Below are positions 4,042 to 32,967 of a stretch of 64,000 nt of DNA, piece by piece; positions within the stretch are counted from its first letter, which is position 1; every line of letters starts with the position of its first letter. The notes beneath the pieces were generated by a model, which saw nothing but the letters and a program-made list of their open reading frames with translations, was not told the DNA's origin and ran no database searches. The DNA comes from a virus. Where the stretch lies: IMG/VR virus record IMGVR_UViG_3300032249_000861, positions 32,001 to 96,000 of that record; one strand, 5' to 3'. A program made the translations under genes and the position numbers.

Positions 4042-4060
4042 TGGTGTAAGTCTTAATACA
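4042..4060 (+). promoter_or_regulatory. candidate late-promoter motif TGGTGTAA
   Basis: Same 8-mer at nearly the same distance (43 vs 42 nt) before the ATG as at 40503. Confidence 0.35.
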
Positions 4061-4084
4061 CGCACAATACAATGGGAGTTTCAA

Positions 4085-6560: not shown

Positions 6561-6583
6561 TTCATAAATATAGGAGATTTTAA

Positions 6584-7675: not shown

Positions 7676-7747
7676 GATTGGTTTACTATAGAAAAGTAGA
7701 TTGTTGATTTATCAAAGAGACTAAAGGACCAATAAAAGGACACAGGA

Positions 7748-7921
7748 ATGGAAGAGCTATATAATATAGTCGGTCGGTTATATGTCGATATACTTCATGC
7801 TCAGAAGTATGTTGAAAGCATACAAAATCAATTAAAAGACAAAGACACAGAGATCATATTACTAAAATCAAAATTAGTAGGTTTACCAAAAGATAAGGAC
7901 AAAAATGCTGAATCGGTATGA
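7748..7921 (+). CDS. small coiled-coil hypothetical protein (57 aa, not in ORF track)
   Basis: MEELYNIVGRLYVDILHAQKYVESIQNQLKDKDTEIILLKSKLVGLPKDKDKNAESV*; AGGA motifs upstream; ATGA overlap with the 7918 gene. Confidence 0.65.
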   Translation: MEELYNIVGRLYVDILHAQKYVESIQNQLKDKDTEIILLKSKLVGLPKDKDKNAESV

Positions 7922-8928: not shown

Positions 8929-8938
8929 GATACAATAT

Positions 8939-9226
8939 ATGTCAAATTATCAACAACTACTCTACGACGTAGAAACAAAATTTAAAACAACAATGATTGG
9001 CTCATTGGCCAGATTTGAAGAAACATTTGGTCACTTATGGGAAGAAGAAGGGCCTGATCAACAGGAATATTTAGAATCTTGGGAATATACTCGAAATGCT
9101 ATTCTAAACAATGGAAACAAGCAAATGAGAGCAGCTTTGGATGATTTATCAGATGCTTTATTGGGGTCATATAAAACAAAATATACTTATAAGTTCAACA
9201 ACAGGAATAATGGAGATAAACAATGA
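8939..9226 (+). CDS. hypothetical helical protein
   Basis: 95-aa ORF with AGGA SD; ATGA overlap with the next gene. Confidence 0.7.
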   Translation: MSNYQQLLYDVETKFKTTMIGSLARFEETFGHLWEEEGPDQQEYLESWEYTRNAILNNGNKQMRAALDDLSDALLGSYKTKYTYKFNNRNNGDKQ

Positions 9227-10156: not shown

Positions 10157-10203
10157 AAAAGTATTCCCTGCTCAGACATTGTTTTGGGCCGGGAATATTT
10201 TTT
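10157..10203. terminator. Rho-independent, possibly bidirectional terminator
   Basis: aaaagtattccc...gggaatatttttt inverted repeat with an inner gctcag/ttgggc stem; A-run before and T-run after. Confidence 0.75.
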
Positions 10204-10242
10204 ATTATTACCAATATCCATCTAACTTAATAATATAATTTT

Positions 10243-13200
10243 ATGGCTACAGCTTTTAATTTGACAGCACAACTTAATTTACGCGGTCCAAATAATGTTA
10301 ACAAGATTGTTGCAGACATTAAAAAGCAACTAACTGGTATAACTGCTAATGTTAATTTAAAACTAGACCCTAACGTTGCTAAAAATGTTAAAGCTATTGA
10401 TTATTCGCTAAAATCATTAAATGCTACATTATCTAAAACAACTACAAATGCTGGTTCCGCAGCAGCTGCTATAGCCGCTTTTGGTAAAGCTGTTAATGCT
10501 ATTAGTATAAAAAATGTATCGCCGCAAATTAATGCTGCTGTAGCCAGCATGAATAAGCTAAATAAGTCAAGCAGCAATGTTTCTCAGTCATTAACTGAAT
10601 CAGCAACAGAAATGCAAGAGTTTGGAAAACAAGCAGGATTAGCTATTAGACGTTTTGCGGCATTTAGTGCTGTTACTGGAGTTATCTATAGTTTAAGTAA
10701 TAGTATTACTCAAGGAATTCAAGCATATATAGATTATGATAAAGAACTAGTTCGTTTACAACAAGTTACAGGCGAGACCGCTGGAGGTCTACAATTACTA
10801 CAAGACTCAATTTCTCAACTAGCAACAGGTTTCGGCGTTAGCTCAAAAGAATTAACAACAGTATCAGTTACACTAGCACAGGCCGGTTTAAGTGCTAAAG
10901 ATACCGAAAGAGCCTTAAGAGCACTAGCATTAAGTTCATTGGCCCCATCGTTCGATGATATGAATGAAACTGTAGAAGGTTCTATTGCTTTGATGAGACA
11001 GTTTGGAATTAGTGCTGGACAACTAGAACCAGCTTTAGGTTCCATCAATGCTGTTGCTGCTGCGTTTGCTGTAGAAGCCGATGACTTAATTACTGCTATT
11101 CAACGTACCGGTGGTGTATTCGCCACTGCTAGTAAAGGCGTTAGTGAGGGAACAGATGCTCTTAATGAGTTCATTGCTGTATTTACTAGTGTTAGAGCAA
11201 CTACTCGTGAAAGCGCAGAAACTATTGCTACTGGTTTACGTACTATTTTTACACGTATTCAACGAGGAAGCACCATTGATGCTCTCAAAGAATTCGGCGT
11301 TACTTTAACAGACTCAGAAGGTAAATTTGTTGGAGCGTATAAAGCTGTTCAGTTATTAAGTGAAGGACTGTCTAAAATAGACACAAGAGATATTAAATTC
11401 TCTAGAATAGTAGAAGAGCTTGGTGGTTTTAGACAGATTGGTAAGGTTATTCCTCTTATTCAACAATTCTCTGTTGCACAAAATGCTCTTAAGATAGCTC
11501 AAACAGGACAATCTTCTTTGGCTAAAGACGCATCAACAGCGCAACTATCATTAGCAAATCAAATTCAAAAAGTTCGTGAAGAATTCTTCGCACTATTCCG
11601 TGAAATTGGACAAAGTAAAGGATTCCAGTCATTGCTTACTGGGGTATTAACATTAACAAGAGGTCTAATTAAGCTTGCTGATGTCTCTAAGAGCCTACTT
11701 CCTGCATTAAGTGTTGTACTAGCGTTTAAAGGAGCTAGTGCTTTAACTCAGTTTGCTAGTGGTTTCAGTAAAGGCTTTAGACCTGGCGGCGGCAAACCAG
11801 AAAAAGAAAGACCGCGATTTGCAGATGGTGGACAAGTTAGATACTATGCTAAGGGAGGACATGTTGCTGGTAGTGGAAATTCTGATACGATACCCGCCAT
11901 GCTAACTCCTGGCGAGTTTGTCATAAATAAAAAAGCCGCACGAGCTGTCGGCTCTAAGAATTTAAATAGGATTAATAGATATGCTTCTGGTGGTAAAGTT
12001 AAAGATTTAGTTAATGATCCTAATGGTAAAAAATCTCTTAAAAAGGTCTATGATATAAATAAAGATTTTGATAGTTATGAAGATCCTACAATAGATAGAG
12101 TAGACCTCGACAAAACATATGATCAGTATACACAACAATCTAAACAGATTTGGTTAGAGGCTAATAAAAAATACAAACAAGATTTAGCTCAAGGATACAA
12201 ACCCCAAAAAGGAGACGTCCCCCAATTAGCAAATGCATATATAAAAAGAGAAACTGGTGGACTAGCTCAGAATCTTGGATTCAAAGAACTAAGAGAGCCT
12301 CAGACGGCTAAAAAATTAAATAAAATTCGTGGAGCTTTAGCTGAAAATGAAGTTAAGAAAAGATATAAATTAGGAAATCCTCTCGCTTTACAAGATGGGG
12401 CTGATTTTTATGATGCTAAAAATGACAGATTCGTAGAAATCAAAAATCAGAAAAAACAATTAAAAGATTCTACTCTGATATCAAAAACATTGCTAGCATT
12501 TGCTGCGAGAAAAGGAAACAAGTTAAATAATCAACCAGATTATGTTCCTAGTTTAAAAATTCTTGCTGTTGAAGCTCCAAGCCCAGACAAATATGATGAA
12601 TTTGAAGAAAAAAAACTTGGCGGACCAATTAATAAAAGAGTTAAACAAGCTGTTGACTTCAAGAACCTGCACAAGATTAATGGGTATGCTAAAGGTGGGC
12701 CTATTGCAGCAAATATTACTGATACTACAACAAGCGATGGAGATACATTAAATGTAAATTTTACACCAGAACAAAAACCATTTAATACTTTGAGCAGATT
12801 AGAAAATTGGGATGCTTTTGAAACAGATGATGTTCAAGGTTTCAAAATACCCGAATGGCAAAGAAAATTGGGTAGAGCGGCAGCGAAGGTTACTTCTGAA
12901 GAATACAATAAACAAGATGACAAAGCTTTGAAAGCGTTTAGGTCGTCAAACGGAGCTATGGATAATTATGGTCGCCCAATGTTTAAAGATGATAATTTGG
13001 GGTCAAAATTAAAAAACTTAGGATTAGCTATGCCATATAAAGGTAAAGGCAAAGCTCCTACCAAACAGCTATCAACATGGGGAGACTATAGAAATATTTT
13101 TGGATATGCTCCTTCACAAGCACCAGGATTACAAGGAGAAGAGATATCAGAAGATAAGGCTGTAAAAAAAGCTTTGGGAGGAATGATTCAAAAGTTTGAA

Positions 13201-16200
13201 GAAGGTGGAGTAGCTCAAAGAAAAGTTGGATATATTGATTATGATGTTATAGCTAATGAAGCTAATAAAGATATTGTAGAAAAAGGAATGAAAGAAACAG
13301 GATCTGATGGTCCTAGAATCTATTCAGACTATCTTACCAAATTAGCTGTTAATGCTAGGAAATCTTCTAGTATTCAAAAACTAAGAGCAATCTATGGTGT
13401 TGCTGGTAGTGGTAAAACAACACTAGCTCGCGGTCAAGGAACAGATAATGCTAGACTAAGAAAGACAGAAAGATTTCCAATTCTTAGTCCAGAAGATATT
13501 CAAAAAGCTACTGAAATATTAATCCTAACTAGTAGTGTAAGTCAAACTAAAATGGATGATTTCTTTGGTGATGTTGATAGAGCATATACATTAAGTTCGA
13601 CTACTGATGCAGAAAGAAGCAGAGTAAGGGATCAAAGAGGATCAAGAGATGTTACGGGGATTGGTTTAGAGGGTCGTCAGCCAGGAACTACTATGGGCGT
13701 TTCAGCAGATACTGCTGTTGGAGAGGCTTTATTATCAGATAAACTAGGAGCTAAATCTACAGTATTAGGAAGAAGTGGCTCTGGTAGACTAAGAAGAAAG
13801 AGCGGAAATGAATTAGTAGACATTGTCAAGAAGAGAATTGGTTTTACATGGGGTGGATTTGCCCCAACAACAGCTGGTCATGAATCAATTATGGATGCTG
13901 CTGCTGCTATGGGTATTCCTCCAGAAGACTTTATAGCACTAGTTGGAGCTAACGAAGCCGTAGACGCATCATCTTATCGCACAGCAATATTTGATCAAGA
14001 TTCCAGAGTATTGCTAGCCAAGGCTGGTTTTGGAGCAAAAGGAGCTACTGTACTTCCCAAGCCAAGAGATTTTGAAGTTCCTCAAGGTTTTGATATAACT
14101 CAACAGGGTTCTGATAGAAGACAAGTACTAATTCCCAGCCAAGGTAGTACAGCATTTGTTGCAGATAAAACAGAAGACCAGACAGCAAAATATAGACAAG
14201 CTGGATATGATGTTAAGAACATAGAACGAACCGGTGGTATTAGTGGCACAATGGTTAGAGATTTAATTATAGCTGGAGATATGGCTAAACTTCAATCAGT
14301 ATTGTCTCCTGGCGTATATGATCTTGTCTCGAATAACATAGGAAGAATACAAAATAGAGCTAGTGTTTTACCATCTCTTATAGAACAAGCTCAAAAAGAA
14401 GCACAAGCTGAAATGGGTCAGGTGGATCAACAGATAGAAGCTCTTGGAATCAAGAGAATAGATTCTAAAAAGTTGGAGAGTGACCCAGAATATGCAGCTA
14501 AAGTAGAAGTTCTTAAAGAGTTAAGAGCTAAAAAACAAAAGATCAAATCAGCTGCGGGATTCACCCCATATAAATTATTAGATGCTTTAGCCGAAAAAGA
14601 TCCGCAAAATTATGCATTGGACTTCTCCACATCATCTAACCTGGGTAATGTTCCAGACATGAGGGTCATGGGACAAAACTCACAAGCTTCAATACCAGCT
14701 GGTAGAGTTGCTCAATTAGCTCAAGAAAAAAATAAAAGTATTCAAGACGTTATACTAGAACAGCTAGGCGGATTGGGTGGTCCTGCTGGAGTTAAAAAAA
14801 TACTTGGCATAGGTAGTGGAGATAGAACATTAAGCTCATTATTACAAGCAGGAAATATTAAGGGAGGTAAAGGTCTAGACGAAGCAGCAGACTATGTTAA
14901 CAGAGCTTTAGCCGCTAGGGGTATAAGAGATGCTGCAGAAGCCAAAAGATTAGAGGAGTATCAAGCTAAGGCTCTTCATTTTGGTATTGCTGGTTTATTG
15001 CCAATGGATTACTCAAAAGAATTCGAATGGGATATTGGCGGTACCGATGTTTACGCTACTGCCAGAGGTTTTGGTAGTACGTATTTGGAAGAAGCAAAAC
15101 AAATGCAGAAGGAGTCATCAGAACTAGCTCAAAGATTTGCAGAAAATGTGCAAAATAAAAATATCTTTGGTGGTGGTGAAAAATTGGCTTTTGATTTTGA
15201 CAAAACATTAGTTGAGGATGCAGATATTCTTGATGCTAAGGGCAAGCCAGATATTGCAAAATATTCAAATAGAGAGGCTGTACAAGAAGCTCTCAAAAGT
15301 GCAAGACCAACCAGACTAGCAACTAAATTAAAATCACTCATAGAGCAAGATCCCCCATTTATTAAGAAAACCAGAATACTAACAGCTAGGCCACAAAGCA
15401 CAGCAGACCTTCTTGCACAATCATTACAAAGCTTTGGTCTTCCCTATGCCGAAACAGATATTACTGGAGTTAGTGGTGGCGTTAGTAGCAATATTCCTGC
15501 ATTAAAAGCTGCTAATTTACAGAAAGAAGAGAAACTTATTGATGATAGTTTAGATAATATTATGGCTGTTCGTAAAGCTGGTAAAAAAGGATTTCAATAT
15601 ACTGAACCCAAATCCACAACATCAGAACTAGACGAAAAAATGGGTCAGGGTAATATCGAGGGTGCTATAATAGAAAAAGCTTTGGCTGTTTTGGGTGCTC
15701 CAGTAAGGCCGGATGCTAAACAAAATAGAGCCATAGACTATCCAGACGGTTTAGGTAGTGCATCTCAATTCTTTCCTGGTATTGATCCTGGTATTCCAAC
15801 AGAAGTTAAAAGAACAATTGACGGTAGTAGTTTAGAGAAAGTTAGAGAAGAGATTGGAAGATACATAACAGGAGGAGCCCAAGCTGTTAAATTAGCTAGA
15901 GGTGGAGCCGTTCAAAGCTTTATGGCCGGTGGAGCAGCAACCAAAACCAGAAAAACAAAAGAGCCTTTCGGAACTGGTGAAACAGAATTTCCAACAAGAA
16001 TATCAAAAAAATATGCCGAAGAACAAAAAACTGCTGATGAATTTGCTAAATCTAAATTAGCATGGGATAAGTATCCTAAAGACGAAAGAATAATGGTTGA
16101 CGATACAAAAGTGCAAGAAGCTTATCAGCAACCATTCGATAGAGAAAGATTTGCTTCATCATTCAAAGAAAAAATTAGTCGCGACTCACTATTCCAAAGA

Positions 16201-25200: not shown

Positions 25201-28200
25201 ACAAGAGCTGCTAGCGGAGCTACTGAAGCAGCACTAGGGGCGGGCATCAGAGGAGCAACTAGTGGTGGAGATTTCGGTACCGTACAAGATGTTGGAATGG
25301 ACTTTATCTCTGGAGCTATTCTTCCGTCTCCTAATTTTGGAGGTAAGGGATCAAAAAACTATAATATTCCAGAAGGTCCAGCAAAACCCAAAACAGAAGC
25401 AGTCGCTTTAAAAGAACTTGCTAAAACAGTTAAGGCTGAACAACGAGCAATCACAGAAGAAAATGTTCTTGATGGTGCTGAAATATTAGCAACAAAAAGA
25501 AAACAAGAAGAAGTTAGAAGAGCAGCACAAGAAAAACAAAGAGTCAGAGATGAAGCAGAAGCAGTGAAAGAATCAGGAAGAGAAAAGGCTGTTTTTGATG
25601 TTTTCACTATTGGAGGAAGATTAAGTGATGATAATATAGCCAGTGCCCTAAAGTCAGCCAAGGAAAAAACTGTAACAGGAACCAAGTTACTAACCGGCAA
25701 AGTTACCGGCAAGCCTAGGGGAGATTTAATAGAGCAGAATCCTACACTAGCTAGTAGACTAGGGGTGTCAACTCCAGGATTAGATGCTGTCAAGAATGGA
25801 CAAAATATAACAGCAAAAGATTTAGTTGCAAAACTAAAAGATGAAGGTTTTAGTGAAGAATATGCTAAGAAGGTCTCAAGAGAGCGTACTCTTAAGATGG
25901 TATCAGATCTTGCTACCGAACGATCAAAAAGAAAAGATGAATCAATACAACAAGTGGCTTCTGAATATAAAGACGCTGTAACTGGTGTTGAAGATCCTAA
26001 TAAGCGAGCCAAAATTAAGGCTAAATTTCAAACCAGACTGCAAAAAGAACTATCGTCTATAGTATCTGACACTAACGACAGAGCAGAAGCATTTGATTCT
26101 GGTATGACGGTTCAAGAACTTAAAAAACAAAGAGCAGCAGAAGCTCAAGCCAAAGATAAAGCAGAGTCTGATAAATTAATACAAGAGTTTGATTCTACTC
26201 TAGGATCAAGTAAGCCAATAACTATTGATAATCCGCCCATCGGAGAACCTCTCGATCTAGGAGTAGACCCACTCGCACCAATAACGTCTGCCAGGGATAA
26301 TGCCGCTACTACGGCAGCTAGTACAAAACCGATATCAACAGAAGAACAGTCTCCGGTTGGAGAAACCACAATTCCTCAGCCTAATAAAGATGCTGCTGAT
26401 ACCGTAACTGCCGGTACAAAACCAGTCGATGCTGCAACAGTAGCAGCAAAAAACCAGACAGTAGTCAAGGCAGCAGAACAAGAAAATACATCTTCGCTAC
26501 AAACATCAGCGATACCGCAGCCCAAACCCTATAATCCTACAGATTATCCTATTATGGATAGTATTATGAGAGGAGGAAAGAACGGCCATTATGGTCCGAT
26601 GGGTACTACTAATATAACAGGTAAACAAAATATTCATGGAATAAGCGGATGGAAAACTAGACTCATACCAAAAGACGACGCGTCTGCAGCAAAAATTAAA
26701 GAATTTTTAGATACTCATCCAGATATAGGGTCATATAAGTTAGCATTAAATGAGGGACCAGTACCAGTATTTAGTGTCTATTTCAAAAAAGGCACCAAAG
26801 ATGAAGCACTATCTTTTGCACAAGCTAGTGAAAAAGGACTAAAAGATAGTTTAGATCCTCGTTTATATCAGGGTGCTGATACTCTGCTAGAAGGGACAAA
26901 TATTTCCGCAAGATTTGATGCTAGAGATCTAAAGAATAAATCAGCATCATCAATTATAGATAGACAACTAGAGAATTCTCCTTTTAGTAGAGGATTTTTA
27001 AAAGCTGAAGAACTGAATCTACAAATACTTCCATCAAATACGGCACCTGGGTCAACGGCTAGCAGAGCAATGCCAAACATTACTGCTGGCACCAGAGGAG
27101 TACCAGATACCGGGTATGTTGATTGGTTAAAAACAAAAAAGTTTTTGGCGAAAGATCCTAAAAAGATAGCTAGTCTAGATGCAGAGATACAAAGAGCTAC
27201 TAACGTAGCAGATGATTGGCTAAAAGAAAATATGTCCGACATCTACAGCGCATCTGCTGAACGAACAGCTAGAGAATCAACAGGCCCACAACAACAAGCA
27301 GTAGTTGAAACAGCAACAAGAGACGCTACGAGCAGGCCAACCAAATCCGGTTTTGTTCGAGATAAATCATTACCGATAAACGAAGTAGACGATCTAGCTT
27401 CTGCCGGATTTGGAGTTATAAGCCCAGACCAAGAAGTAGAAAGTGTTATAAGGGGTGCAAGAGAAAATTTTCTTGGCTCTTTAACTAAACCAGCAGCATT
27501 ATTACAGCCAGAAACATACCAAAAATATGCAGACCAACTATTAGAACTAGAAAAATCAGGAAAAATAAAAATAACCAAAGGCGCTTCATTTGGTACTAGT
27601 GGCCAACCAAGTATATTTGTAGGAAAACCAGAAAATGTAGATATTCTTGCAAAAGCTTTTGAATCTGAAACAGCAAGGACACGAGAAACGAGAGGTTCAA
27701 CATCAAATGAATTTAAAGAAACGGTAGGAAAAGCATTAGGATATAGTAAAGATAGTATAGCCCTACATATATTAGAAAAAGATTGGGATAAAGCAGGATT
27801 AGATATAGACACTATTCAAGATAGATTACAAGTTAGTCGTGGTGCTGCTGCTCGGTATATGGTATCAGAAATTAATAAAGCTAAAGAACAAGCATCAGTT
27901 GAGCAAGGAGTAAAAGAATCAATAAACCCGCCCATCAAAGATCCTATTACTGGAGATGAATTTGAATTAGGACCTGGAGATGATTTTCAATTAGGAGGTC
28001 TTGGAGAAGATCCGTTGGCACCGGCTCCTATAATAAAACCAGAAAATGTATTACCTGAAGCAAGAGCAGAATCAGAAGCTCGTAGAGCCGAAACAGCAAC
28101 CTCACGAACTAAATCTAGTATTGTTGATGAAGATGAGTTTGTTTTAGGAGACATGGAAGATGATAGTACTGTCGTAGCTGTTGAGCCTGACGATGGTTCG

Positions 28201-31200
28201 AACTTTTTTGGAGAAGCATTCGCTGCCGCCGCACAAGAAGCCAGAGCCATAGAAGCAACAAGGGCTCAGATTGAAACCAACGATAAGTTTGTTGTTGACC
28301 AGCCTGATATGATGACAGCTTCAGAGCTTGACCCAATAACAAGAGCTTCTAGTAGGAGGGTTTGGGGATCTGATAAGGCTTTTGAAAATATGCCCAAACC
28401 CAAAATTTCTAGAGAAAAAGTCAAAGCACTAGACACTGGCGAGCCTGACGAGATGACAGCTTCAGAGCTTACTCCTCTACAGAGGGCCGTTATTAATAAG
28501 TCATTCGGACTTGATTCTGATAAAGGTTTCGAATTGCGAGAACAACTTATAGCTCAAAAAAGAGAAGCAGATATACTTCCAGAAGACTTTTTTCCAAACG
28601 GTTCATCAAGAACAGAAACTCCATTATCTTCAGCTAGAACAGAAGCAGAAGCTAAGAATCCTGGTACCGTATTTGAAGGACAGTTAGAAGCAGCATTAAC
28701 CGATGCTTCTTCTCCAGAAGCTTTAAAAGCTTCTGCAGAAGCTCAACAAAGATTAGCAGCACAAAAATTAGCAGCAAAATCTCCAGAACAAATATCTGTA
28801 GAAAAAACATATGGTCCTTTATATAGAGAAGCTAAAAAAGCTAATGATACAGCGGAGATGGCCAGAATACGATTAGAAGCTAATGCAGAATTTAAGAAAC
28901 GCTCTCAAGAAGCTTCTACAAGATCTGAAGATAAAAAGAACAATTTCCTTCCTGTTATGGGTAGGGTCTTAAAGATAGCCGCCCCAATCGGATCAGCTAT
29001 TGGTTATGGACTAGGATCGTTATTAAGTGGTTCTATGGGCAGAAAAAAAGAAGAACCTCAAGATTTAGCTTCTAGGTTAGAAAATGCTTCTGATCTACAA
29101 GAAGTTTTTGATCTTTTAAAACTAGCAGAAAAAGACAAGATAGGAAACCCGACTAATCCTTTAAGAGAAATAGGCGGATCATCCCCACTTATTGCTAAAT
29201 TACAAAAACTAGCTCCAGAAATATATGGTAAAAAAGGTAGTGACTATTTTAGCTCTCAAGACTTAGCAGCTATGCCGGAAGACGCATATAATGAGAATTT
29301 TCTAGAAAGATTAAAAGATAATGCAACATTCGAGAAGATGAAAAGAGAACAAAAGGTAGCTGAACCTGCTCGCTTAAAGAGTGATGAGGCTGCACGGGCT
29401 ACAACAAGAGATCTTATAACGCAATGGTCTCAAGACTTTGCTATGGCGGGTAATGATGTCCGAACTCCTCCAGGTTCTGATCCTAAAAAAGCTAGAAATC
29501 CGTTAAAAGCCATGTCACGAGAAATGGCAGAAAGAGCACAAGAAAGAAGAAGTGGATTCCCCACAGACGATCAAGGAAACGATCTACAGATAGGCACTAT
29601 GATTCCCGCCCCGATATCGGTTTTAGATCGTACAAAAAATGATGCTGCAGCGATGAGAGAAATTGACGAAAAAGATAATAATGCTGCTCCGATGCTGGAA
29701 GTTAAGAAACCAGTAAAGAAATCTCTTGGGGGTTTAATTTATGCGTCGAAAGGAACCTTAGTAAACTACCAACCTCGTGGAACTGACACAGTACCAGCAA
29801 TGTTAACTCCGGGCGAGTTTGTTGTTAATGCCAGAGCAACAGCAGATAACTACCCATTACTAAAAGCTATTAATAGCGGAACTAACGTTGATACTACTGC
29901 TAATATGAGTAAGGGCGGTGTGGTTTATGCTCAAGAAGGAGCATTAGTACCTAGCTTCGGAATGCATATTCCATCTTTAGATCCAGACAAAAATACTAAA
30001 TTAACCCTATTACCAGAAAGCTCTTTAGATCAAGCAAATACAAAAGAAGCTTTTCGAGAATATGGAAACGCTCGACCTTCCTATCAATCAAGACCACAAC
30101 TACCAAAGCCAACTGTTCAATCAGGATCTTTTAAAGAAGGAGTTCATGATAGAAATTCTGTTATAAAAGATAGTGAATATTCTAGAAGTTTAAAGAGAAT
30201 GGGTATTCCACACGTATCACAGAGTGGTGGATCTAAAACCTATTTGGATCAAAATGGCAGAGAAATTTCAGCAAATGAATTTAAACTTTTACCAGAAACG
30301 TCTTTTAATCATCCAGAATATGCAGTCATGCGTAGCAGAGCAGCTTTTGCTGCTGGAGCTGCTAAGTCTGTTGTTCCTCAAATGGGGGCTACGTCTGGGG
30401 CTATAGCAGGAGCAGCTGCCGGAGCCGTATTAGGACCTCCCGGAGTAATTGCCGGAGGCTTGATTGGAGGTTTGACTGGTGGTATAATGGGATCGGCATT
30501 ACAAGAAACAGCATTAGATATAGCAAATCCAGAGGCTAACGCTATAGCTAATCAACTAATGGATCAAAATCCCGTATCAGCAATGGCAGGATCAGCAGCA
30601 GGAGACATTGCAACAGGAGGATTACTATCATTAGCCTTGCCTTCTATACCAACACCAACAAGGGCTGGAGATTCAATGGTTGGTCCCGGAGGACTAACAC
30701 CAAAACAAATAAAACATGCTGAAAAAGGATTAAATAGACCCATATCAGAAGCGATTACTCCGTTTACAGGAATGAAAGGATTTGGAGGTCGTTATGTTGA
30801 CGGTCCAATAAGTGTTGATCAGTTAGTATATAAATCCAGAGACAACTTGGCTGAGAGTATTCATTACTCTGGGGCAGATCCCAAAACATTTGATTCATTA
30901 ACAACAAGATTAACAGAACCTGTTCCTGGAGCTCTTGGTGATTATTACCAGGGACTAAGCAGGATATCTCCTAAAGCTCCTCCAGAACATATTATTGGAA
31001 CAATAGCTCATGAGGCTGGCCATCATTATCAAACAATGAAGGACCCTACTGGAAGATTCGTAAAAACTTGGATGTCAGATAATAGAGATCAAGCAAGTGA
31101 CTGGATTTTAAAAAGAACATCCTCTCCTCAATATCTTGAAACTGCAACTCCAAGAAACCAGGTGAATTATGGAGTTAATGATATGCTGAGTGGGGATTTT

Positions 31201-32967
31201 TATAAACAGAGACAAATGGAACAATTAAGAAAAGAGTTTGGAGAGGATGGTTTTAAGACTTTATTAGAAGACTCGTTAGCACATACTCTAGGGGCTGGTA
31301 AAAAAGGCATAGCTGGAGATGTAAATTCAGCACTAAGATTTGAGTCTCAAAACTATATTCGCGGCAGAACTGGTGGCAGATATGGCGAAGCAGGACTAGC
31401 ATTTGGAGGCGAAGACCTGTCTCGCATAGATCCCGATATAATGGCAAAGGTTGGAGTAAGAGCTCCACAAACCTTAACAGGTCACGACAGAGTTTTAGAC
31501 GCTATGACAAGATATGGTCAGGATAAGGGTTTTGCATTTCCTAATTTTGTAGATAATGCAGAAGTGTCTGGTAGACAAGAATTTCTTACGTCTATGTTCC
31601 AGGATTTAGGAGGAGCAGATAAAGAAGCCAGAGGATTATCTCAAGGATTAGTCAAATTTATCGAAACTAAGGGTGGAGAAGGCGTAAAAATGACTCCACC
31701 GCCACTTCCTCCATCTCCACCACCACTTCCTGTTAATAGATACGCAAATGGCGGAATGGTCAATATGTCTGAAGGTAACAAGATTCCATCCGAAGTATGG
31801 GCAATAGGTACAAAATATACAAATGTTATGTCTCCTGAAGATTTTGAAAAACGCAAAGTCATTAGACCAAAATTATCTGATGATAGTACCTATGATACCC
31901 CCAAGGTTTTTAAAGACTATCACGAAGCACATAAAAAACCTATTAGTATTGATCCAGCATTACTAGATAAACAATCTTCTTTCTCTAAGTATTTACAGTC
32001 TGGCGGTCGAAGAATGTCTAATAATGTTGAAATTGCACCAAAATTAACCACAGATGAAGTATTACAATATTTTCAAAATATAAAAGCAAAAGAACGTCGT
32101 GAAGGTTCTCCTCCTGCTGGTGGTAGGGTTCAATATGCAACTGGTGGAATAGTTTATGCAAATAATGGTGCCCTCATAGCTGCACAACCAATGGGAACTG
32201 ATACTGTTCCAGCGATGCTAACTCCAGGAGAATTTGTTGTCAAAAAAGAACAAGCTCAAAAACACGCTCCAATATTACATGCTATAAATAGTGGAGCTTA
32301 TAGTAGGGGTGGTATTGTTAATTATTTGGCTAATGGTGGTATTGTTAATCCAAACTATTTATCTTATGGTGGCTATGCCAAAATGGGAGAGCAAGATCGT
32401 CGAGATCCATTAAAAGAGATGAGTCAGAGAGTAGCAGAATATAACGCCGCTGCAGCACCTCAACCAGTACCACTTCCTGCTCCAGCCCCAGTTCAAGTTC
32501 CATCTCCAGCACCAGTTGGTGGTGTATCTAATAATATTGGTATAGATTTAGCTGGTTTGCAATCAATAGTGGCTAATTTCCAGAAAACGGTCAATGATTT
32601 TGGAGCATCGGTGCCTTCGCTTTCACAAGTGGCAGAGAGTATGAATACTGGTTTTAGTTCTTTCGTAACAGGAGGATCTCAAATAGGAGAGATGTTAAAT
32701 AGTGCAACAGCTGGTTTACAACAAGTTAATCTTCCTGATAGGATTAGACTAGAAGGTTCAGTAAGTAATAATGTAAATATTAACGGTGCTGAAGCAGCCG
32801 CTAGGGTTATGGATACTATGGGCGGTGCTATTCAACAGGGCGCAAATGAACAAATAGGCAGATTCGCCGGAGCTATTAATAGAGGTATTGGTAATTTGGG
32901 TGAAGGAGCATTAGGTCCAGATACTGGTCAAATTATGGGTCAAATAGGTGGTTCAAATTATGCTTAA
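10243..32967 (+). CDS. giant (7574 aa) tape measure protein / multi-enzyme polyprotein
   Basis: N-terminal TP901-type tape-measure core (YDKELVRLQQVTG...LAQAGL...ETIATGLRTIFTRI...LKEFGV), long helical stretches, five DT.PA.L.PGEF modules, and many embedded enzyme motifs. Confidence 0.9.
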   Translation: MATAFNLTAQLNLRGPNNVNKIVADIKKQLTGITANVNLKLDPNVAKNVKAIDYSLKSLNATLSKTTTNAGSAAAAIAAFGKAVNAISIKNVSPQINAAVASMNKLNKSSSNVSQSLTESATEMQEFGKQAGLAIRRFAAFSAVTGVIYSLSNSITQGIQAYIDYDKELVRLQQVTGETAGGLQLLQDSISQLATGFGVSSKELTTVSVTLAQAGLSAKDTERALRALALSSLAPSFDDMNETVEGSIALMRQFGISAGQLEPALGSINAVAAAFAVEADDLITAIQRTGGVFATASKGVSEGTDALNEFIAVFTSVRATTRESAETIATGLRTIFTRIQRGSTIDALKEFGVTLTDSEGKFVGAYKAVQLLSEGLSKIDTRDIKFSRIVEELGGFRQIGKVIPLIQQFSVAQNALKIAQTGQSSLAKDASTAQLSLANQIQKVREEFFALFREIGQSKGFQSLLTGVLTLTRGLIKLADVSKSLLPALSVVLAFKGASALTQFASGFSKGFRPGGGKPEKERPRFADGGQVRYYAKGGHVAGSGNSDTIPAMLTPGEFVINKKAARAVGSKNLNRINRYASGGKVKDLVNDPNGKKSLKKVYDINKDFDSYEDPTIDRVDLDKTYDQYTQQSKQIWLEANKKYKQDLAQGYKPQKGDVPQLANAYIKRETGGLAQNLGFKELREPQTAKKLNKIRGALAENEVKKRYKLGNPLALQDGADFYDAKNDRFVEIKNQKKQLKDSTLISKTLLAFAARKGNKLNNQPDYVPSLKILAVEAPSPDKYDEFEEKKLGGPINKRVKQAVDFKNLHKINGYAKGGPIAANITDTTTSDGDTLNVNFTPEQKPFNTLSRLENWDAFETDDVQGFKIPEWQRKLGRAAAKVTSEEYNKQDDKALKAFRSSNGAMDNYGRPMFKDDNLGSKLKNLGLAMPYKGKGKAPTKQLSTWGDYRNIFGYAPSQAPGLQGEEISEDKAVKKALGGMIQKFEEGGVAQRKVGYIDYDVIANEANKDIVEKGMKETGSDGPRIYSDYLTKLAVNARKSSSIQKLRAIYGVAGSGKTTLARGQGTDNARLRKTERFPILSPEDIQKATEILILTSSVSQTKMDDFFGDVDRAYTLSSTTDAERSRVRDQRGSRDVTGIGLEGRQPGTTMGVSADTAVGEALLSDKLGAKSTVLGRSGSGRLRRKSGNELVDIVKKRIGFTWGGFAPTTAGHESIMDAAAAMGIPPEDFIALVGANEAVDASSYRTAIFDQDSRVLLAKAGFGAKGATVLPKPRDFEVPQGFDITQQGSDRRQVLIPSQGSTAFVADKTEDQTAKYRQAGYDVKNIERTGGISGTMVRDLIIAGDMAKLQSVLSPGVYDLVSNNIGRIQNRASVLPSLIEQAQKEAQAEMGQVDQQIEALGIKRIDSKKLESDPEYAAKVEVLKELRAKKQKIKSAAGFTPYKLLDALAEKDPQNYALDFSTSSNLGNVPDMRVMGQNSQASIPAGRVAQLAQEKNKSIQDVILEQLGGLGGPAGVKKILGIGSGDRTLSSLLQAGNIKGGKGLDEAADYVNRALAARGIRDAAEAKRLEEYQAKALHFGIAGLLPMDYSKEFEWDIGGTDVYATARGFGSTYLEEAKQMQKESSELAQRFAENVQNKNIFGGGEKLAFDFDKTLVEDADILDAKGKPDIAKYSNREAVQEALKSARPTRLATKLKSLIEQDPPFIKKTRILTARPQSTADLLAQSLQSFGLPYAETDITGVSGGVSSNIPALKAANLQKEEKLIDDSLDNIMAVRKAGKKGFQYTEPKSTTSELDEKMGQGNIEGAIIEKALAVLGAPVRPDAKQNRAIDYPDGLGSASQFFPGIDPGIPTEVKRTIDGSSLEKVREEIGRYITGGAQAVKLARGGAVQSFMAGGAATKTRKTKEPFGTGETEFPTRISKKYAEEQKTADEFAKSKLAWDKYPKDERIMVDDTKVQEAYQQPFDRERFASSFKEKISRDSLFQRMSDFAKFVGLPEEDLSVALPLQLDFGASKRGGGLGMFAAAQFEKGATGIRPYEGYDLSKFGYGEKQKQEAYGLEKLITAKEKEIAKIRKTPTETYDDGSFSFDSEAFQKTSIELDSLKNRLFKLKDLKRDAEKAALSEQNTTSSAAGRGTISFASSMGYSSDTKNSTLYHEMTHQLFQGLRTKSAGSFDKYRDRVSSLFSGDNDDLADAFDSLTAGGGYSSADVVYGRSYKSNNLSQILSSYYRQNLDFSRSAATIPQDTTKNLASLSTQSTAAKRAREYRPINPRVNEALLQAGDKFGMTQEKIDRMEDNGKEEFLTTLMEKAPQLDQNLQGILDSTLTELLSGAGIQRQKYAAGRKVDYESGVGVSPFGGSISKRLSESVYNLQKGTGLSDPEFNEIKKTADTYGYNEEEFKEYLAKRIQEKKNKQGLRASPSALAQQLMQQKTVSTPKQLALAETLKGEPDAGYRPIPTAAERIASDRMAVQNATRRFASGGTVSALVSNGEAYVPPKIAKRIGYGNLNRMNQADRNGMSKFSSGGISVFKGPGTGTSDSIPANLPVGSFIIREKATKALGLNKGGAVPAQRFATGGSVTSMIMEWLSSDMTAGTKPKMPQRPDIVSRATVTASSDTTKELDNLVKSLNAVGFSAKESADILNRGGQVSYKTIEKALVKDIERLKKSTAGIDQITQAETTLARIRNQTKKDVGSKQKMEEAFRGSGRSSGSVQQEIYSTAMSMGEQNIEAKEAARRKKIPQIEKRERKKLIESKREDFIEKEYKNQVAKEQKTKGRKLTSTEKDKVRSDAELKGNTKTFKLTTEEKTNVKATAQAKTTLSAEERTKEYNKAALRATTSVTGASKSELAAKNVKGSDILRYAQESMRDRKTLAEMDKQFVAMAMDEYKNRGTVNGIVVKSAAEAKKAAEEEISKRREAINARASQNGEKGVGAAGLRDYRNSPILNQIKGFIKSPGRVMGGVSVAAGLAAGSSDMIAKNMYDMSTTEGQGKAAKTSAAIQSSGTILSTGLAAASQMATIPVIGPYVAALTAVGTAAAAAADYFYDFTGAQKAATVEFERSVRAKEIGIAMDGLDRAFQNFEKDMGNIDLQNALEKSLGGASSLQIKDNMAERDNAKAEFSLKNRSWSDIFSGNFKGSAKMDALQQGAMDSEMSQKITPIADKAMSLYEKQISSGKSIQDIVNNVRTGNKEAGAAGFAVAASVNPKLWSELEAKIAKSGDTSEQNREKIQKEIAARELLTNVQLQSIERMAKLNKEMDAADRAGRRLAETFEHIGETIDQSIQRMQRESQIRQAQANDRVEARRGNAGFDERAVNNRNVGVLTSPKAYQNDPGRIEEAIRAGTTGMSPELAQKMAGGARLEATLPNVMRNAVSSELKTNANLDLAEAADAARKKGTEAIQRSGLSEADQKVAIDKLNTKLNSEQEKAQKEGGDSPRQKVDFFIDSVSELGPEIANIFGNAGKRLDDIIQARQGIYDTFAKNLQAASEAAKKAREFFSKARDIRYNAGMDLREAQTGVGESYAEAKAKSDSSIARLTGGVTDPQAIGRNIDALTARRDQQMKARDAAASDPNLTPKQQEDAAIKFAKDIQATNNALNDNREALDKLANSAEVAQKALDEVKNIRGLQQDRENFVNQLLTNTPAEADKLNQSFIRLQRNLSGGLNNASNQRDARNAFNDTLRRTGNLREATRAGNTVLADQRKQTLQLMQDPGFRGMMTLNMKNQGMNDQQIDKKFRDQESMLMQQMAVESGMINNPMVRQALAAKQDPNADPAMKRAAEQFLQSTGLQAKATEEQGRLELANVQSLLITSTDDLRTSIDALTTSINASLGPDGERVPGAVGPMVPVPAGARGAGPIGRPIRRATGGKVNTQYASTGKLIDFSPKGTDTVPAMLTPGEFVVNAKATADNYPLLKAINNGTNLVGNTAMMSKGGVVYLDNGGLIDEFRRIDSNSSNFLEVGEIDLKMMQLLDTDKDNKVSFREYSARAKSGGSGSSRSGQRSPVNSSFKADNLSFKAYSNAREEKYSKRYEGTRDRFPRETEKFSSGGLVTPYYLQDGTEKPLSKRPFMVKMEKPEDPLEAAERRRARALKASHPEITRVRQPSLVPGDPRALRHKESFYRLDVNSDGVLDAKEGRPHPELDRDLDRRITLEEWDGIDPGEFDPDDSSHVLRDSKGNPLTPGLMGSPFEKRHRSLMASVAMDEEKLAKGEPLVDSNGKPIDLASKRKELAIFNAQSGLYNTSQSLIARQKNIDDSLTKRLTGGGSLRNPDSSYAVTREFNKIRDRRSAFEEERRGQRAKDENATDEEIFDRTVEAYGQGDSDYWRSMGVTEAPNSYDESNTLNFIRSGDRLASRGDPYGDKARAYIDGYIASQGARQQQDRVDIGMGRPTISPDKAVVGTQGPVDDLNYLIDRNEVGRAVKYKAEQAKTEEENKQRDDAQVKQAEKQASLEKRDKELGIDTSGINRDIYESGGGFSNQPGSGRKVTVEEQTQRKRERAIADRFSFTDKTGKYSTAGTIDKVDFEKGTVKIAKMDPKTGEPITRTVPVFAGGETEEAIKASGRDPRRFKVGEKEEQVYTTVPLDKLSDKSRDKVRSYGLEKEADKAKTGENFTVGTSFEDYKGKIFRVDEKSEKVIVQKEDGKLVSVPMGIIDPETKNIALDQAKTATTVTDLTQKQMDADIGNIDFTSSLPEPQVPLIEDFTDRANEVRQETMNNAALEQTKMDQLPVMSEPVPTSGTIDPLTGKVVGNNVSMDLNPDGTRTPEQLNILNQQATRDADRRNSNARYEELRARSKAESSYDRSWFGENWPKEWGGVSKPEKRLTRKELEELGAMESERGVPALSRLGANTRVEQTRRNAGLDEAQIESLSQQKTEQFKAELEKKNDAEGGVAVGLAAQRAVVPLLAGATAVAAAPALVPAGVIGAGLTIAGGVGFSLGANKLQDVALEGTDFDKRQKELAEKRPGATAVGSLLPGLLTGNPLTGATTLRQALATRAASGATEAALGAGIRGATSGGDFGTVQDVGMDFISGAILPSPNFGGKGSKNYNIPEGPAKPKTEAVALKELAKTVKAEQRAITEENVLDGAEILATKRKQEEVRRAAQEKQRVRDEAEAVKESGREKAVFDVFTIGGRLSDDNIASALKSAKEKTVTGTKLLTGKVTGKPRGDLIEQNPTLASRLGVSTPGLDAVKNGQNITAKDLVAKLKDEGFSEEYAKKVSRERTLKMVSDLATERSKRKDESIQQVASEYKDAVTGVEDPNKRAKIKAKFQTRLQKELSSIVSDTNDRAEAFDSGMTVQELKKQRAAEAQAKDKAESDKLIQEFDSTLGSSKPITIDNPPIGEPLDLGVDPLAPITSARDNAATTAASTKPISTEEQSPVGETTIPQPNKDAADTVTAGTKPVDAATVAAKNQTVVKAAEQENTSSLQTSAIPQPKPYNPTDYPIMDSIMRGGKNGHYGPMGTTNITGKQNIHGISGWKTRLIPKDDASAAKIKEFLDTHPDIGSYKLALNEGPVPVFSVYFKKGTKDEALSFAQASEKGLKDSLDPRLYQGADTLLEGTNISARFDARDLKNKSASSIIDRQLENSPFSRGFLKAEELNLQILPSNTAPGSTASRAMPNITAGTRGVPDTGYVDWLKTKKFLAKDPKKIASLDAEIQRATNVADDWLKENMSDIYSASAERTARESTGPQQQAVVETATRDATSRPTKSGFVRDKSLPINEVDDLASAGFGVISPDQEVESVIRGARENFLGSLTKPAALLQPETYQKYADQLLELEKSGKIKITKGASFGTSGQPSIFVGKPENVDILAKAFESETARTRETRGSTSNEFKETVGKALGYSKDSIALHILEKDWDKAGLDIDTIQDRLQVSRGAAARYMVSEINKAKEQASVEQGVKESINPPIKDPITGDEFELGPGDDFQLGGLGEDPLAPAPIIKPENVLPEARAESEARRAETATSRTKSSIVDEDEFVLGDMEDDSTVVAVEPDDGSNFFGEAFAAAAQEARAIEATRAQIETNDKFVVDQPDMMTASELDPITRASSRRVWGSDKAFENMPKPKISREKVKALDTGEPDEMTASELTPLQRAVINKSFGLDSDKGFELREQLIAQKREADILPEDFFPNGSSRTETPLSSARTEAEAKNPGTVFEGQLEAALTDASSPEALKASAEAQQRLAAQKLAAKSPEQISVEKTYGPLYREAKKANDTAEMARIRLEANAEFKKRSQEASTRSEDKKNNFLPVMGRVLKIAAPIGSAIGYGLGSLLSGSMGRKKEEPQDLASRLENASDLQEVFDLLKLAEKDKIGNPTNPLREIGGSSPLIAKLQKLAPEIYGKKGSDYFSSQDLAAMPEDAYNENFLERLKDNATFEKMKREQKVAEPARLKSDEAARATTRDLITQWSQDFAMAGNDVRTPPGSDPKKARNPLKAMSREMAERAQERRSGFPTDDQGNDLQIGTMIPAPISVLDRTKNDAAAMREIDEKDNNAAPMLEVKKPVKKSLGGLIYASKGTLVNYQPRGTDTVPAMLTPGEFVVNARATADNYPLLKAINSGTNVDTTANMSKGGVVYAQEGALVPSFGMHIPSLDPDKNTKLTLLPESSLDQANTKEAFREYGNARPSYQSRPQLPKPTVQSGSFKEGVHDRNSVIKDSEYSRSLKRMGIPHVSQSGGSKTYLDQNGREISANEFKLLPETSFNHPEYAVMRSRAAFAAGAAKSVVPQMGATSGAIAGAAAGAVLGPPGVIAGGLIGGLTGGIMGSALQETALDIANPEANAIANQLMDQNPVSAMAGSAAGDIATGGLLSLALPSIPTPTRAGDSMVGPGGLTPKQIKHAEKGLNRPISEAITPFTGMKGFGGRYVDGPISVDQLVYKSRDNLAESIHYSGADPKTFDSLTTRLTEPVPGALGDYYQGLSRISPKAPPEHIIGTIAHEAGHHYQTMKDPTGRFVKTWMSDNRDQASDWILKRTSSPQYLETATPRNQVNYGVNDMLSGDFYKQRQMEQLRKEFGEDGFKTLLEDSLAHTLGAGKKGIAGDVNSALRFESQNYIRGRTGGRYGEAGLAFGGEDLSRIDPDIMAKVGVRAPQTLTGHDRVLDAMTRYGQDKGFAFPNFVDNAEVSGRQEFLTSMFQDLGGADKEARGLSQGLVKFIETKGGEGVKMTPPPLPPSPPPLPVNRYANGGMVNMSEGNKIPSEVWAIGTKYTNVMSPEDFEKRKVIRPKLSDDSTYDTPKVFKDYHEAHKKPISIDPALLDKQSSFSKYLQSGGRRMSNNVEIAPKLTTDEVLQYFQNIKAKERREGSPPAGGRVQYATGGIVYANNGALIAAQPMGTDTVPAMLTPGEFVVKKEQAQKHAPILHAINSGAYSRGGIVNYLANGGIVNPNYLSYGGYAKMGEQDRRDPLKEMSQRVAEYNAAAAPQPVPLPAPAPVQVPSPAPVGGVSNNIGIDLAGLQSIVANFQKTVNDFGASVPSLSQVAESMNTGFSSFVTGGSQIGEMLNSATAGLQQVNLPDRIRLEGSVSNNVNINGAEAAARVMDTMGGAIQQGANEQIGRFAGAINRGIGNLGEGALGPDTGQIMGQIGGSNYA
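12300..12600 (+). other. TMP cassette: PD-(D/E)xK-like nuclease domain 1
   Basis: G..AE (GALAENEV), ADF, VEIK motif order. Confidence 0.55.
12700..13040 (+). other. TMP cassette: staphylococcal-nuclease-like (thermonuclease) domain
   Basis: DGDT...RLENWDAFE...G.AA...DNYGR...L.N.GLA. Confidence 0.8.
13380..13700 (+). other. TMP cassette: P-loop nucleotide-kinase-like domain
   Basis: Hydrophobic strand followed by GVAGSGKTTLA; later RxxxR-like lid (RSRVRDQRGSR). Confidence 0.7.
13830..14340 (+). other. TMP cassette: HIGH-superfamily (cytidylyltransferase-like) nucleotidyltransferase
   Basis: GGFAPTTAGH (TxGH) and ISGTMVRDLI (ISxTxxR) signature motifs. Confidence 0.8.
15181..15600 (+). other. 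TMP cassette: HAD-family phosphatase
   Basis: Motif I LAFDFDKTL, motif II ILTARP, motif III K (ALKAA), motif IV LIDDSLDNI. Confidence 0.8.
15640..15870 (+). other. TMP cassette: PD-(D/E)xK-like nuclease domain 2
   Basis: EGAIIE, AIDYP, TEVKRT motif order. Confidence 0.45.
16240..17250 (+). other. TMP cassette: zincin-like metallopeptidase 1
   Basis: GTISF strand, TLYHEMTHQLF at 16708, downstream EEFLT helix. Confidence 0.65.
21883..22035 (+). repeat. conserved TMP junction module, near-identical in protein to the copy at 29779-29928
   Basis: GTDTVPAMLTPGEFVVNA(K/R)ATADNYPLLKAIN.GTN....TA.MSKGGVVY in both; other copies at about 11880, 17850 and 32195. Confidence 0.9.
22060..22690 (+). other. 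TMP cassette: two EF-hand pairs
   Basis: DSNSSNFLEVGE / DTDKDNKVSFRE and DVNSDGVLDAKE / DRDLDRRITLEE loops. Confidence 0.7.
23731..24210 (+). other. TMP cassette: two SHD1 (SLA1 homology domain 1)-like domains
   Basis: FSFTDKTGKYSTAG...TVKI.K...VPLDKLSDKSRDKV; second copy YKGKI.RVD..KVIVQKEDGKLVSVPMGIIDPET. Confidence 0.65.
30900..31670 (+). other. TMP cassette: zincin-like metallopeptidase 2
   Basis: LGDYY, TIAHEAGHHY at 31009, downstream QEFLT helix matching EEFLT in peptidase 1. Confidence 0.65.

Follow-up and report, generated by a model that had tools for sequence, protein, structure and literature searches.

Can a phage tail bring a set of ready-made enzymes into its host inside its own tape measure protein (TMP)? 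This question is raised by a 64,000-nucleotide stretch of viral DNA, hereafter the window, which comprises bases 32001-96000 of the 110-kb linear IMG/VR virus record IMGVR_UViG_3300032249_000861 (CheckV completeness 73%) and in which one open reading frame (ORF), at 10243..32967 on the + strand, encodes a TMP of 7,574 amino acids (aa) with embedded enzyme-like cassettes. An earlier note on this DNA had described a tape measure core followed by at least eight catalytic domains and had proposed that the tail lumen delivers them. Having compared the gene and its cassettes with those of relatives, we favor the reading that exchangeable enzyme cassettes have been inserted between the N-terminal TMP core and a C-terminal tip-binding end and are delivered by the tail, and we put its probability at roughly 0.55. 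Features are given by their positions in the protein and then in the window, all on the + strand.

The reading frame and its assembly

The single frame holds 7,574 codons and is free of stops over 22.7 kb (standard code; ORF list and translation). The sequence is of metagenomic origin, contains repeated modules able to mislead an assembler, and has related strains in sister samples, all of which could lead one to suspect that unrelated pieces had been joined or the frame mis-called. Against this, a second assembler (Logan) produced from the probable source run one 94,758-bp contig that spans 10972-30199 with 0 differences and an even depth of 21.6. The same 7,574-aa protein is also on record on a 200,684-bp contig, and colinear relatives were recovered from other samples, among them the 7,279-aa P0003, which is 65-90% identical to it. 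Complete relatives with direct terminal repeats (238-244 kb) and one 197-kb genome have TMP versions of 5,292-6,560 aa. Finally, 22.7 kb without stops, with a ratio of nonsynonymous to synonymous divergence (dN/dS) well below 1 throughout, is not what a chimera would be expected to show. Because the Logan contig has no differences, P0003 is colinear and complete relatives have long versions of their own, we conclude that the uninterrupted ORF described in the earlier note is real and is no assembly artefact; we give practically no credence to a chimera, which that note had named as a possible refutation.

Two sister samples of the same study (X2 and X3) contain related strains, with hundreds of mostly transition differences over 10200-30199. 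Their coverage is patchy and ends at some cassette borders, consistent with strains of differing cassette content. As for composition, the TMP gene (window 10001-32000) has a G+C fraction of 0.37-0.40 versus 0.31-0.37 in the flanks, and its coding strand shows a strong purine excess relative to its neighbours, with an AT skew of up to 0.26.

Identification of the protein as a tape measure

The canonical TMP core occupies aa 1-510 (10243..11772). Within it, PF10145 matches aa 188-382 in Pfam (E 6.9e-22, 78.7 bits against a cut-off of 33.2; 86.5 bits in our genome search), and TMP families of PHROGs match aa 47-500 (E 4e-29 for PHROG_28), which bears out the classical core claimed earlier. A full HMMER scan of 1.84 billion representatives gave 101 homologues of at least 2,000 aa, and aa 1-580 are common to ∼90 of these. 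The family forms more than 100 clusters at 50% identity, almost all of them with the TMP core; 71 clusters (4,165-7,733 aa) carry the kinase-nucleotidyltransferase cassette described below, and nearly all of these have PF10145. JGI labels many of the relatives ‘TP901 family phage tail tape measure protein’. The gene sits in a tail module, upstream of distal tail and fibre-like genes, and a downstream 827-aa protein matches minor tail proteins of PHROGs and fn3. Since the PF10145 and PHROG matches, the tail-gene neighbours, the core shared by ∼90 of 101 homologues and the JGI names all agree, we identify the protein as the TP901-type TMP of a large (∼200 kb or more) uncultured freshwater phage.

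Two further parts of the chain belong to its backbone. The helix-rich stretch at aa 2601-3859 (18043..21819) is common to about half of the family, as judged from coverage profile and composition. The C-terminal end (32440..32964) is rich in glycine and alanine, a composition kept at the C-terminus of relatives, and by analogy we infer that it corresponds to the part located in the tail tip in the TMPs of lambda, T5 and DT57C (PMC12617516, PMC10713586).

Enzyme-like cassettes

When the whole protein was searched with Pfam and PHROGs, only the TMP core, the EF-hands and a repeated module (termed GEFV, below) were recognised, and a single-sequence PDB search of aa 1-5000 returned no match. The domain assignments were made from related viral contigs, which we aligned, from searches of PDB with profiles, and from two AlphaFold models.

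The first cassette assigned in this way is a predicted staphylococcal-nuclease (SNase)-like domain at aa 796-975 (12628..13167). The motifs DGD(T/S), R-x4-D-x2-E and DKYGR are kept in its alignment (A4) and align to thermonuclease. The five best PDB matches to the A4 profile are all thermonucleases, with E values of 3.5e-3 to 6.4e-2 over the whole domain, and a homologue that JGI places in the ‘thermonuclease family’ (P0170) aligns at the same position (E 4.5e-6). PF00565, which is on record for the relative P0179, gave no direct match to the 7,574-aa protein in the Pfam scan or in a genome profile search with a coarse first filter.

An AlphaFold model of aa 985-1400, with a predicted local distance difference test score (pLDDT) of 87.7 and a predicted template modelling score of 0.82, covers two adjacent domains, the second of which is the more firmly assigned. 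This is a HIGH-signature nucleotidyltransferase at aa 1196-1377 (13828..14373), with the motifs TAGH at aa 1210 and ISGTMVR at aa 1333 and with S, T and R invariant in 29 sequences. Its profile matched MJ0951 (E 1.2e-9), NMNAT (8e-6) and MJ0541 (1.7e-4) in PDB, and Foldseek returned PPAT/NMNAT (E 2e-6) among 72 matches at E≤1e-3. VIA superimposed it on the M. jannaschii NMNAT 1f9a with a Z of 14.1 and a root-mean-square deviation (rmsd) of 2.6 over 154 of 164 residues. Although 14 of the 16 top VIA rows are adenylyltransferases of nicotinamide or nicotinic acid mononucleotide (NMN/NaMN), PPAT and TmcAL-like proteins score nearly as high by profile and Foldseek. The model thus indicates a HIGH nucleotidyltransferase of NMNAT-like, Rossmann-like fold. 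Related domains are found elsewhere: short IMG/VR viral contigs (L036-L040) encode a nucleotidyltransferase domain 25-27% identical to the cassette, and BFVD holds many cytidyltransferase-like proteins of 150-1,270 aa, from cyanophages and ‘uncultured Caudovirales’, whose fold is the same. This widespread phage enzyme, still uncharacterised, may be the source of the cassette.

Immediately before it lies a P-loop kinase-like domain at aa 993-1192 (13219..13818), with the Walker A motif GVAGSGKT at aa 1052, which is kept down to 33% identity. The model has a pLDDT of ∼90 here, and zeta toxin 6epg_B (Z 8.1, model residues 9-208) is the sole kinase row among the VIA matches listed. A protein-atlas/language-model lead (0.86) to viral clusters of CTP_transf_like with Zeta_toxin/AAA_33 agrees with this fold match, and PF06414 did not match the protein in the Pfam scan or in the coarsely filtered genome profile search. 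The weaker assignment that we make for this domain is a zeta-toxin-like P-loop kinase.

The third member of this group is a capless HAD phosphatase cassette at aa 1645-1785 (15175..15597), with the motifs DFDKT, ILTAR and IDD. In its alignment (A2) DxDxT, the motif II threonine and DD are invariant, and the model has a pLDDT of ∼80. The first ∼45 Foldseek matches are all HAD phosphatases. In VIA, T4 Pnkp and Pnkp1 score highest (Z 11.1 for 5uj0_B, with 125 of 142 residues and an rmsd of 3.4, then 10.3 and 10.1) and other HADs reach at most 8.3, a likeness to which small size may contribute, as the cassette and the Pnkp phosphatase are both capless. The domain also matched the 5′-3′ deoxyribonucleotidase of PHROGs (E 7.5e-4), and its PDB profile search was empty. 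From the model, the cassette is predicted to be a HAD phosphatase with a fold closest to the T4 Pnkp 3′-phosphatase.

Two readings of this trio are possible. It may act on nucleotides, with the NMNAT-like enzyme and the kinase re-synthesizing NAD+, or it may act on nucleic-acid ends, with the kinase and the 3′-phosphatase carrying out Pnkp-type healing. Neither a Nampt-type enzyme (PF04095) nor an RNA ligase (PF09414) was found in this genome and four complete relatives by a search with an insensitive first filter, a result that favors neither reading and counts against neither. In NadR the order of kinase and nucleotidyltransferase is reversed relative to aa 993-1377.

For four other cassettes the calls are made at the level of motifs only. 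The first PD-(D/E)xK-like cassette (aa 590-795, 12010..12627) has LAE, GADF and VEIK; in its domain (aa ∼690-760) LAE, G(A/P)DF and hE.K are kept in seven divergent homologues, and it had no Pfam or PDB match. The second is a mini-cassette at aa 1798-1875 (15634..15867) with QxNIEG..E, IDxP and TEVKRT. Its alignment (A9) has 21 invariant columns, including E, ID.P and TEVKRT, and it ends in GGAVQSFMAGG. Together with the adjoining alpha/beta domain it gave no PDB profile match, and the model has a pLDDT below 50 in this region.

HExxH domain 1 (aa 2037-2340, 16351..17262) is a putative zincin-type metallopeptidase with YHEMTHQ at aa 2155 and GKEEFLT at aa ∼2298. YHE..HQ and EEFLT are invariant in 10 homologues down to 34% identity, and the model is mostly helical with a pLDDT of 80-90. 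Its sole family signal is a weak SprT-like match (E 0.018) in two of the 10 members; the PDB profile search was empty and the protein-atlas lead (LPD23, 0.77) weak. HExxH domain 2 (aa 6790-7160, 30610..31722) has AHEAGHH at aa 6922 and QEFLTS near aa 7107; AHEA.HH and QEFLTS are kept in L041, P0003 and P0104, all ∼70% identical, and no standalone homologues were found. A similar helix follows each HExxH after 140-185 residues (NGKEEFLTT in domain 1, SGRQEFLTS in domain 2), and this helix may supply the third zinc ligand. A common origin of the two domains is not supported, as hhalign aligned only the EFLT helix, with a probability of 16%.

All the motifs of the eight or more catalytic domains claimed by the earlier note are therefore present and kept in divergent homologues, and the assignments differ in firmness: the SNase, nucleotidyltransferase and HAD calls have profile or fold matches, the kinase call is weaker, and the two PD-(D/E)xK and two HExxH calls stay at motif level. 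The comparison of models with known folds, which that note had suggested, recovered the expected folds for the HAD and nucleotidyltransferase cassettes, with a lesser match for the kinase. In ten other giant members of the family Pfam found only PF10145 and one aminopeptidase match.

Cassette exchange and selection

We compared the protein region by region with five fully recovered relatives; the earlier note had suggested a comparison of cassette content among related phages. Cassettes differ among the five in presence, order and identity: a presence/absence matrix and changing identity ranks show that relatives gain, lose, reorder and exchange them. PD-(D/E)xK-1 occurs in only one of the five (L008), where it is 97% identical versus 67% for the core and flanks. 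Two relatives match the kinase-nucleotidyltransferase block at 90-91% identity, and another two, with closer cores, at 36%. The HAD cassette is found in three relatives, HExxH-1 in three others and HExxH-2 in none of the five. Changes of order were seen as well: in L019, L026 and L027 HExxH-1 precedes the kinase block, and in L024 PD-(D/E)xK-2 lies on the opposite side of the HAD cassette.

Divergence at synonymous sites (dS) from one relative ranges from 0.11 to 0.83 between regions, and dN/dS is 0.08-0.26 in all regions (0.10-0.17 in the enzyme cassettes, 0.08 in the core). The extreme case is a cassette of unknown fold at aa 5300-5740 (26140..27462), which has no Pfam family match and shows a jump in identity to L013: 87% aa identity, a dS of 0.11 and a dN/dS of 0.24, compared with a dS of 0.83 in the core. 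This points to a recent transfer of that piece alone. The motif found at the junctions, [FYWLM]xxGGx[VIAL], occurs in 23 copies, as against 2.5±1.5 in 500 shuffled sequences (maximum 9), and every HExxH-1 cassette ends in YAxGGxV regardless of the segment that follows. The spread of dS, taken with the low dN/dS, argues that the cassettes are functional and move by recombination; with catalytic motifs that are invariant in homologues down to 27-36% identity, we regard them, on sequence grounds, as functional proteins under purifying selection that are swapped at [FY]xxGG junctions. No cell-wall hydrolase was recognised in the protein by Pfam scans. The claim that this TMP has catalytic additions beyond cell-wall hydrolases thus gains support from the conservation of the cassettes, the purifying selection and their exchange as units.

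These data also bear on whether the enzyme-like segments might be no more than ruler, that is, exapted and catalytically irrelevant spacers that lengthen the tail to ∼1 micrometre. TMP length is known to set tail length (Katsura & Hendrix 1984, cited in PMC12619734), motifs embedded in mycobacteriophage TMPs count toward it (Piuri & Hatfull 2006, as cited in the same paper), and the lengths of the relatives vary from 5,198 to 7,733 aa. However, mere spacers would not be expected to keep DGDT/R/D/E, Walker A, T-x-GH, ISxTxxR, DxDxT, DD and HExxH invariant across homologues of 27-40% identity, nor to have a dN/dS as low as in the core and high-confidence globular models. We consider a purely ruler role very improbable.

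The GEFV module and its likeness to lambda gpH

Five GEFV modules, with the layout ...GG.V...(D)T(I/V)PAMLTPGEFV...NL..IN.YA.GG.V, are spread along the chain at aa 550, 2540, 3885, 6517 and 7322. Module 1 (aa 520-590, 11800..12012) reads FADGG..YAKGG..IPAMLTPGEFV..YASGG and, like the module in general, matches the C-terminal part of PHROG TMP profiles. Module 2 (aa 2470-2600, 17650..18042) is degenerate, with IPANLPVGSFI. Module 3 (aa 3860-3940, 21820..22062) matches annotated TMPs of cultured phages; matches to the module are found in those of Nodularia, Erythrobacter, Pseudanabaena, Rhodococcus and Mycobacterium phages. Module 4 (aa 6490-6575, 29710..29967) matches a PHROG TMP profile with an E of 1.7e-10, and module 5 (aa 7290-7380, 32110..32382) was identified by its motif. 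An internal duplication of the TMP core was considered and dropped, because aa 1-590 and aa 2900-3940 share only the GEFV module.

The lambda TMP, gpH, has the same layout at aa ∼731-787 (FHFATGG...PAGIVHRGEFVFTKEATSRIGVGNLYRLMRGYATGGYV). The likeness was read from the sequences, and pairwise BLAST of module 3 against gpH was not significant. Lambda gpH has one copy of this element (FAxGG ... PA..(L/V)..GEFV ... NL.R.. YA(S/T)GG.V) near its C-terminus and is without enzyme domains, whereas the 7,574-aa TMP has five spread copies and several such domains. In lambda the element closely follows the gpH* cut, estimated to lie at ∼690-730, and belongs to an unresolved region at the N-terminus of gpHC; the exact cut site and the protease were unidentified in the 2025 paper that describes it (PMC12617516). 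The repeated gpHC-like module also offers a route to study the cutting of lambda gpH, a question still open in that paper.

Proposed delivery by the tail

How would such a protein work? TMPs of siphophages are metastable in the tail tube, are expelled first and form a trans-envelope channel, as described for lambda gpH* (PMC12617516; PMC10770324). Like them, the 7,574-aa chain would be stretched out and metastable in the assembled tail tube and would be expelled into the envelope at the start of infection, whereupon the cassettes would fold and work in the periplasm or cytoplasm before phage genes are expressed. The GEFV modules and the HExxH domains are the likely places and means of cutting the chain into pieces. 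Host or competitor nucleic acid would be the target of the nucleases, which, like the EF-hands, would be at home in Ca2+-rich surroundings in the periplasm or outside the cell; the kinase, adenylyltransferase and phosphatase would fit the cytoplasm because they need ATP. Four hydrophobic stretches, identified by hydropathy, could leave successive segments on opposite sides of the inner membrane: one in the TMP core (aa 475-503, 11665-11751), one in the helix-rich backbone (aa 3014-3039, within 18043..21819), a glycine-rich hairpin (aa 4883-4933, 24889..25041) and a second hairpin (aa 6719-6754, 30397..30504). The idea of delivery is plausible because other TMPs are ejected and because there is a precedent for an enzyme fused to a TMP, namely gp96 of Thermus phage P23-45 (below). 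By analogy with these systems, it is probable that the tail carries finished enzymes into the host before the DNA.

Several points weigh against this reading. Pfam recognises none of the enzyme domains above its cut-offs, and four of the eight catalytic calls (two PD-(D/E)xK, two HExxH) are drawn from motifs. Genome profile searches with PF00565, PF06414 and PF13699 gave no candidates, at a coarse first filter and a sensitivity not above that of hmmscan. Neither of the pathways suggested for the kinase, nucleotidyltransferase and phosphatase has support from genome context. The presence of the cassettes in the virion or tail lumen, their entry into the host, and the use of GEFV modules as cut sites are proposals by analogy, and ‘anti-defence’ and ‘host takeover’ roles are guesses. 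Space is a further difficulty, since a lumen of 3-4 nm should be too narrow for three or six copies of folded domains of 20-30 kDa. It follows that the cargo would be unfolded, or that the tail is ∼1 micrometre long with all 7,574 residues serving as ruler, or that the chain is cut and partly unpackaged.

The last of these is the chief rival, in which the giant ORF is a late polyprotein that co-expresses enzymes with the tail and is cut at GEFV/GG sites. Only the ruler segments would be built in, and the other pieces would be lost or stay in the producer cell, where the retained enzymes would recycle nucleotides or break down host DNA or RNA late in infection. Tail assembly does involve cutting of lambda gpH and T5 pb2, with the possible loss of half of the gpHC copies (PMC12617516); the present chain has five gpHC-like modules, 23 junction motifs and HExxH domains, and folded enzymes fit the tube lumen poorly. 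However, excision of the cassettes, flanked as they are by the core and the tip-binding end, would fragment the ruler, and P23-45 virions retain the large TMP-fused enzyme, which is active in the host (PMC10770324). Late-only expression would also be odd for nucleases and for activities of the NAD- or RNA-repair type, and no protease specificity is known. On balance we judge a late polyprotein unlikely.

The shortage of space in the tube can also be met by placing cargo in the head. Here part of the chain would line the tube and the cassette-rich parts would lie in, or reach into, the capsid and follow the TMP out, like the internal proteins of T7, P22, N4 and crAss-like phages. Phage polyvalent proteins are thought to be packaged in capsids (PMC5512222), and a jumbo-sized genome presumably has a large head. 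Such an arrangement is at odds with the known orientation of siphophage TMPs, in which the N-terminus is head-proximal and the C-terminus in the tip (PMC10713586), the cassettes being internal to both; moreover, we saw no head-targeting signal or association with MuF or portal, and siphophage tails assemble apart from heads. We regard head cargo as improbable.

Delivery of the cassettes by the tail remains the reading that we prefer. A tentative and rather doubtful extension of it would apply to the aquatic jumbo-phage family as a whole: the TMP may be a programmable multi-effector magazine in which the GEFV and [FY]xxGG elements serve both as recombination joints and as cut sites, and from which refolding nucleases, an NAD+- or RNA-end-restoring set and peptidases are released to disarm host defences before the genome enters.

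Remaining segments and neighbouring genes

EF-hand calcium-binding loops lie at aa 3960-3979 and 4112-4128 (22105..22662). EF-hand_1 matched in two stretches (E 1.5e-7, 30.9 bits against a cut-off of 25.4), as the earlier note had predicted, and EF-hand families are precomputed on P0003 and P0152. The SHD1-like repeats that it placed at aa ∼4490-4640 (23710..24162) were a resemblance by eye and were not confirmed: SHD1 (PF03983) gave no Pfam match even at E≤10 over aa 4330-4800, nor was there BLAST similarity to P0179, a relative with precomputed PF03983. The alpha/beta domain at aa 1915-2015 (15985..16287), between PD-(D/E)xK-2 and HExxH-1, has no family assignment; it is modelled with a pLDDT of ∼85, and its FDR..F..SFK.KISR motif is kept in relatives.

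The gene directly downstream of that for the TMP (32988-36518, +) specifies a protein of 1,176 aa, in which aa 888-1023 match PF03781, a domain of the FGE-sulfatase/SUMF1 type (E 1.8e-10). Further large ORFs follow at 46294-50085, 54069-60482 and 60486-63998+ (1,263, 2,137 and >1,171 aa), and these very large ORFs and the FGE-domain protein are probably fibres or receptor-binding proteins. Upstream, nine consecutive ORFs of 177-417 aa at 1092-10131 (+) presumably code for structural proteins of head and tail; scans with Pfam and PHROGs returned no match for the seven largest.

Comparison with known systems

The earlier note's statement that TMP fusions of this kind are not known is outdated, given P23-45 gp96 (PMC10770324) and the TMP-related effectors of injection systems (PMC13277306). 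In the 5,002-aa gp96, the TMP is joined to a virion RNA polymerase, by which the pre-early genes are transcribed (PMC10770324). This protein and its counterparts in P74-26, G20c and TSP4 resemble the present protein in being giant TMPs of long-tailed phages with a virion-carried cytoplasmic enzyme that acts before phage gene expression, and gp96 too has a metallopeptidase and transmembrane segments (PMC10770324). It differs in having one N-terminal enzyme, whereas the 7,574-aa protein has an N-terminal PF10145 core with many small, unrelated, swappable cassettes and is 1.5 times longer. No DxDxD polymerase motif was found in the latter, its D.D.D strings being confined to the EF-hand loops, and tblastn of aa 1-1795 and 2000-6900 gave no matches to Thermus phages.

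Polyvalent proteins (Iyer, Burroughs, Anand, de Souza, Aravind 2017; PMC5512222) likewise combine many disparate enzyme domains in one polypeptide of a mobile element, have recurrent zincin-type HExxH domains, and are predicted to accompany the DNA when invasion begins. Their context is head packaging (portal/MuF) or a type IV secretion system, whereas the carrier here is a tail TMP, so that the protein falls outside them by context; the word ‘tape’ does not occur in PMC5512222. No Pfam polyvalent-protein family was found above threshold in the 7,574-aa TMP, LPD23 being the atlas lead mentioned above. TMPs of the mycobacteriophage TM4 type are similar in having embedded enzyme motifs that are used at infection; as cited in PMC12619734 (Piuri & Hatfull 2006), these are small cell-wall hydrolase motifs, as opposed to the nucleases and nucleotide-handling enzymes predicted here. 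The TMP-related modular effectors of actinobacterial contractile injection systems (Sle1/Sle2) are TMP-derived, tube-packed proteins with an exchangeable ejected domain (PMC13277306; PMC11126660), but they belong to a cellular nanomachine and have one functional domain, and ours is a virus with several cassettes. The eCIS_core family (PF13699) had no match in this genome in a profile search with a coarse first filter. None of 50,697 GenBank phage records carries these cassettes, and in the full-text literature searched we found no description of multi-enzyme, cassette-shuffled tape measures.

The family is abundant yet invisible to Pfam outside its core, and is thus a reservoir of enzyme families that await description and that probably act against the defences of the host. 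Should the cassettes indeed be delivered, a phage tail would not only conduct DNA but also inject proteins, with a payload open to exchange. This would explain why the tape measures of the family, at 7,574 aa in this phage and as much as 7,733 aa in its relatives versus 5,002 aa in P23-45, are the largest known. Effectors made in advance by the phage would then have a third way into the host, the other two being packaging in the head and the one known fusion of a polymerase to a TMP.

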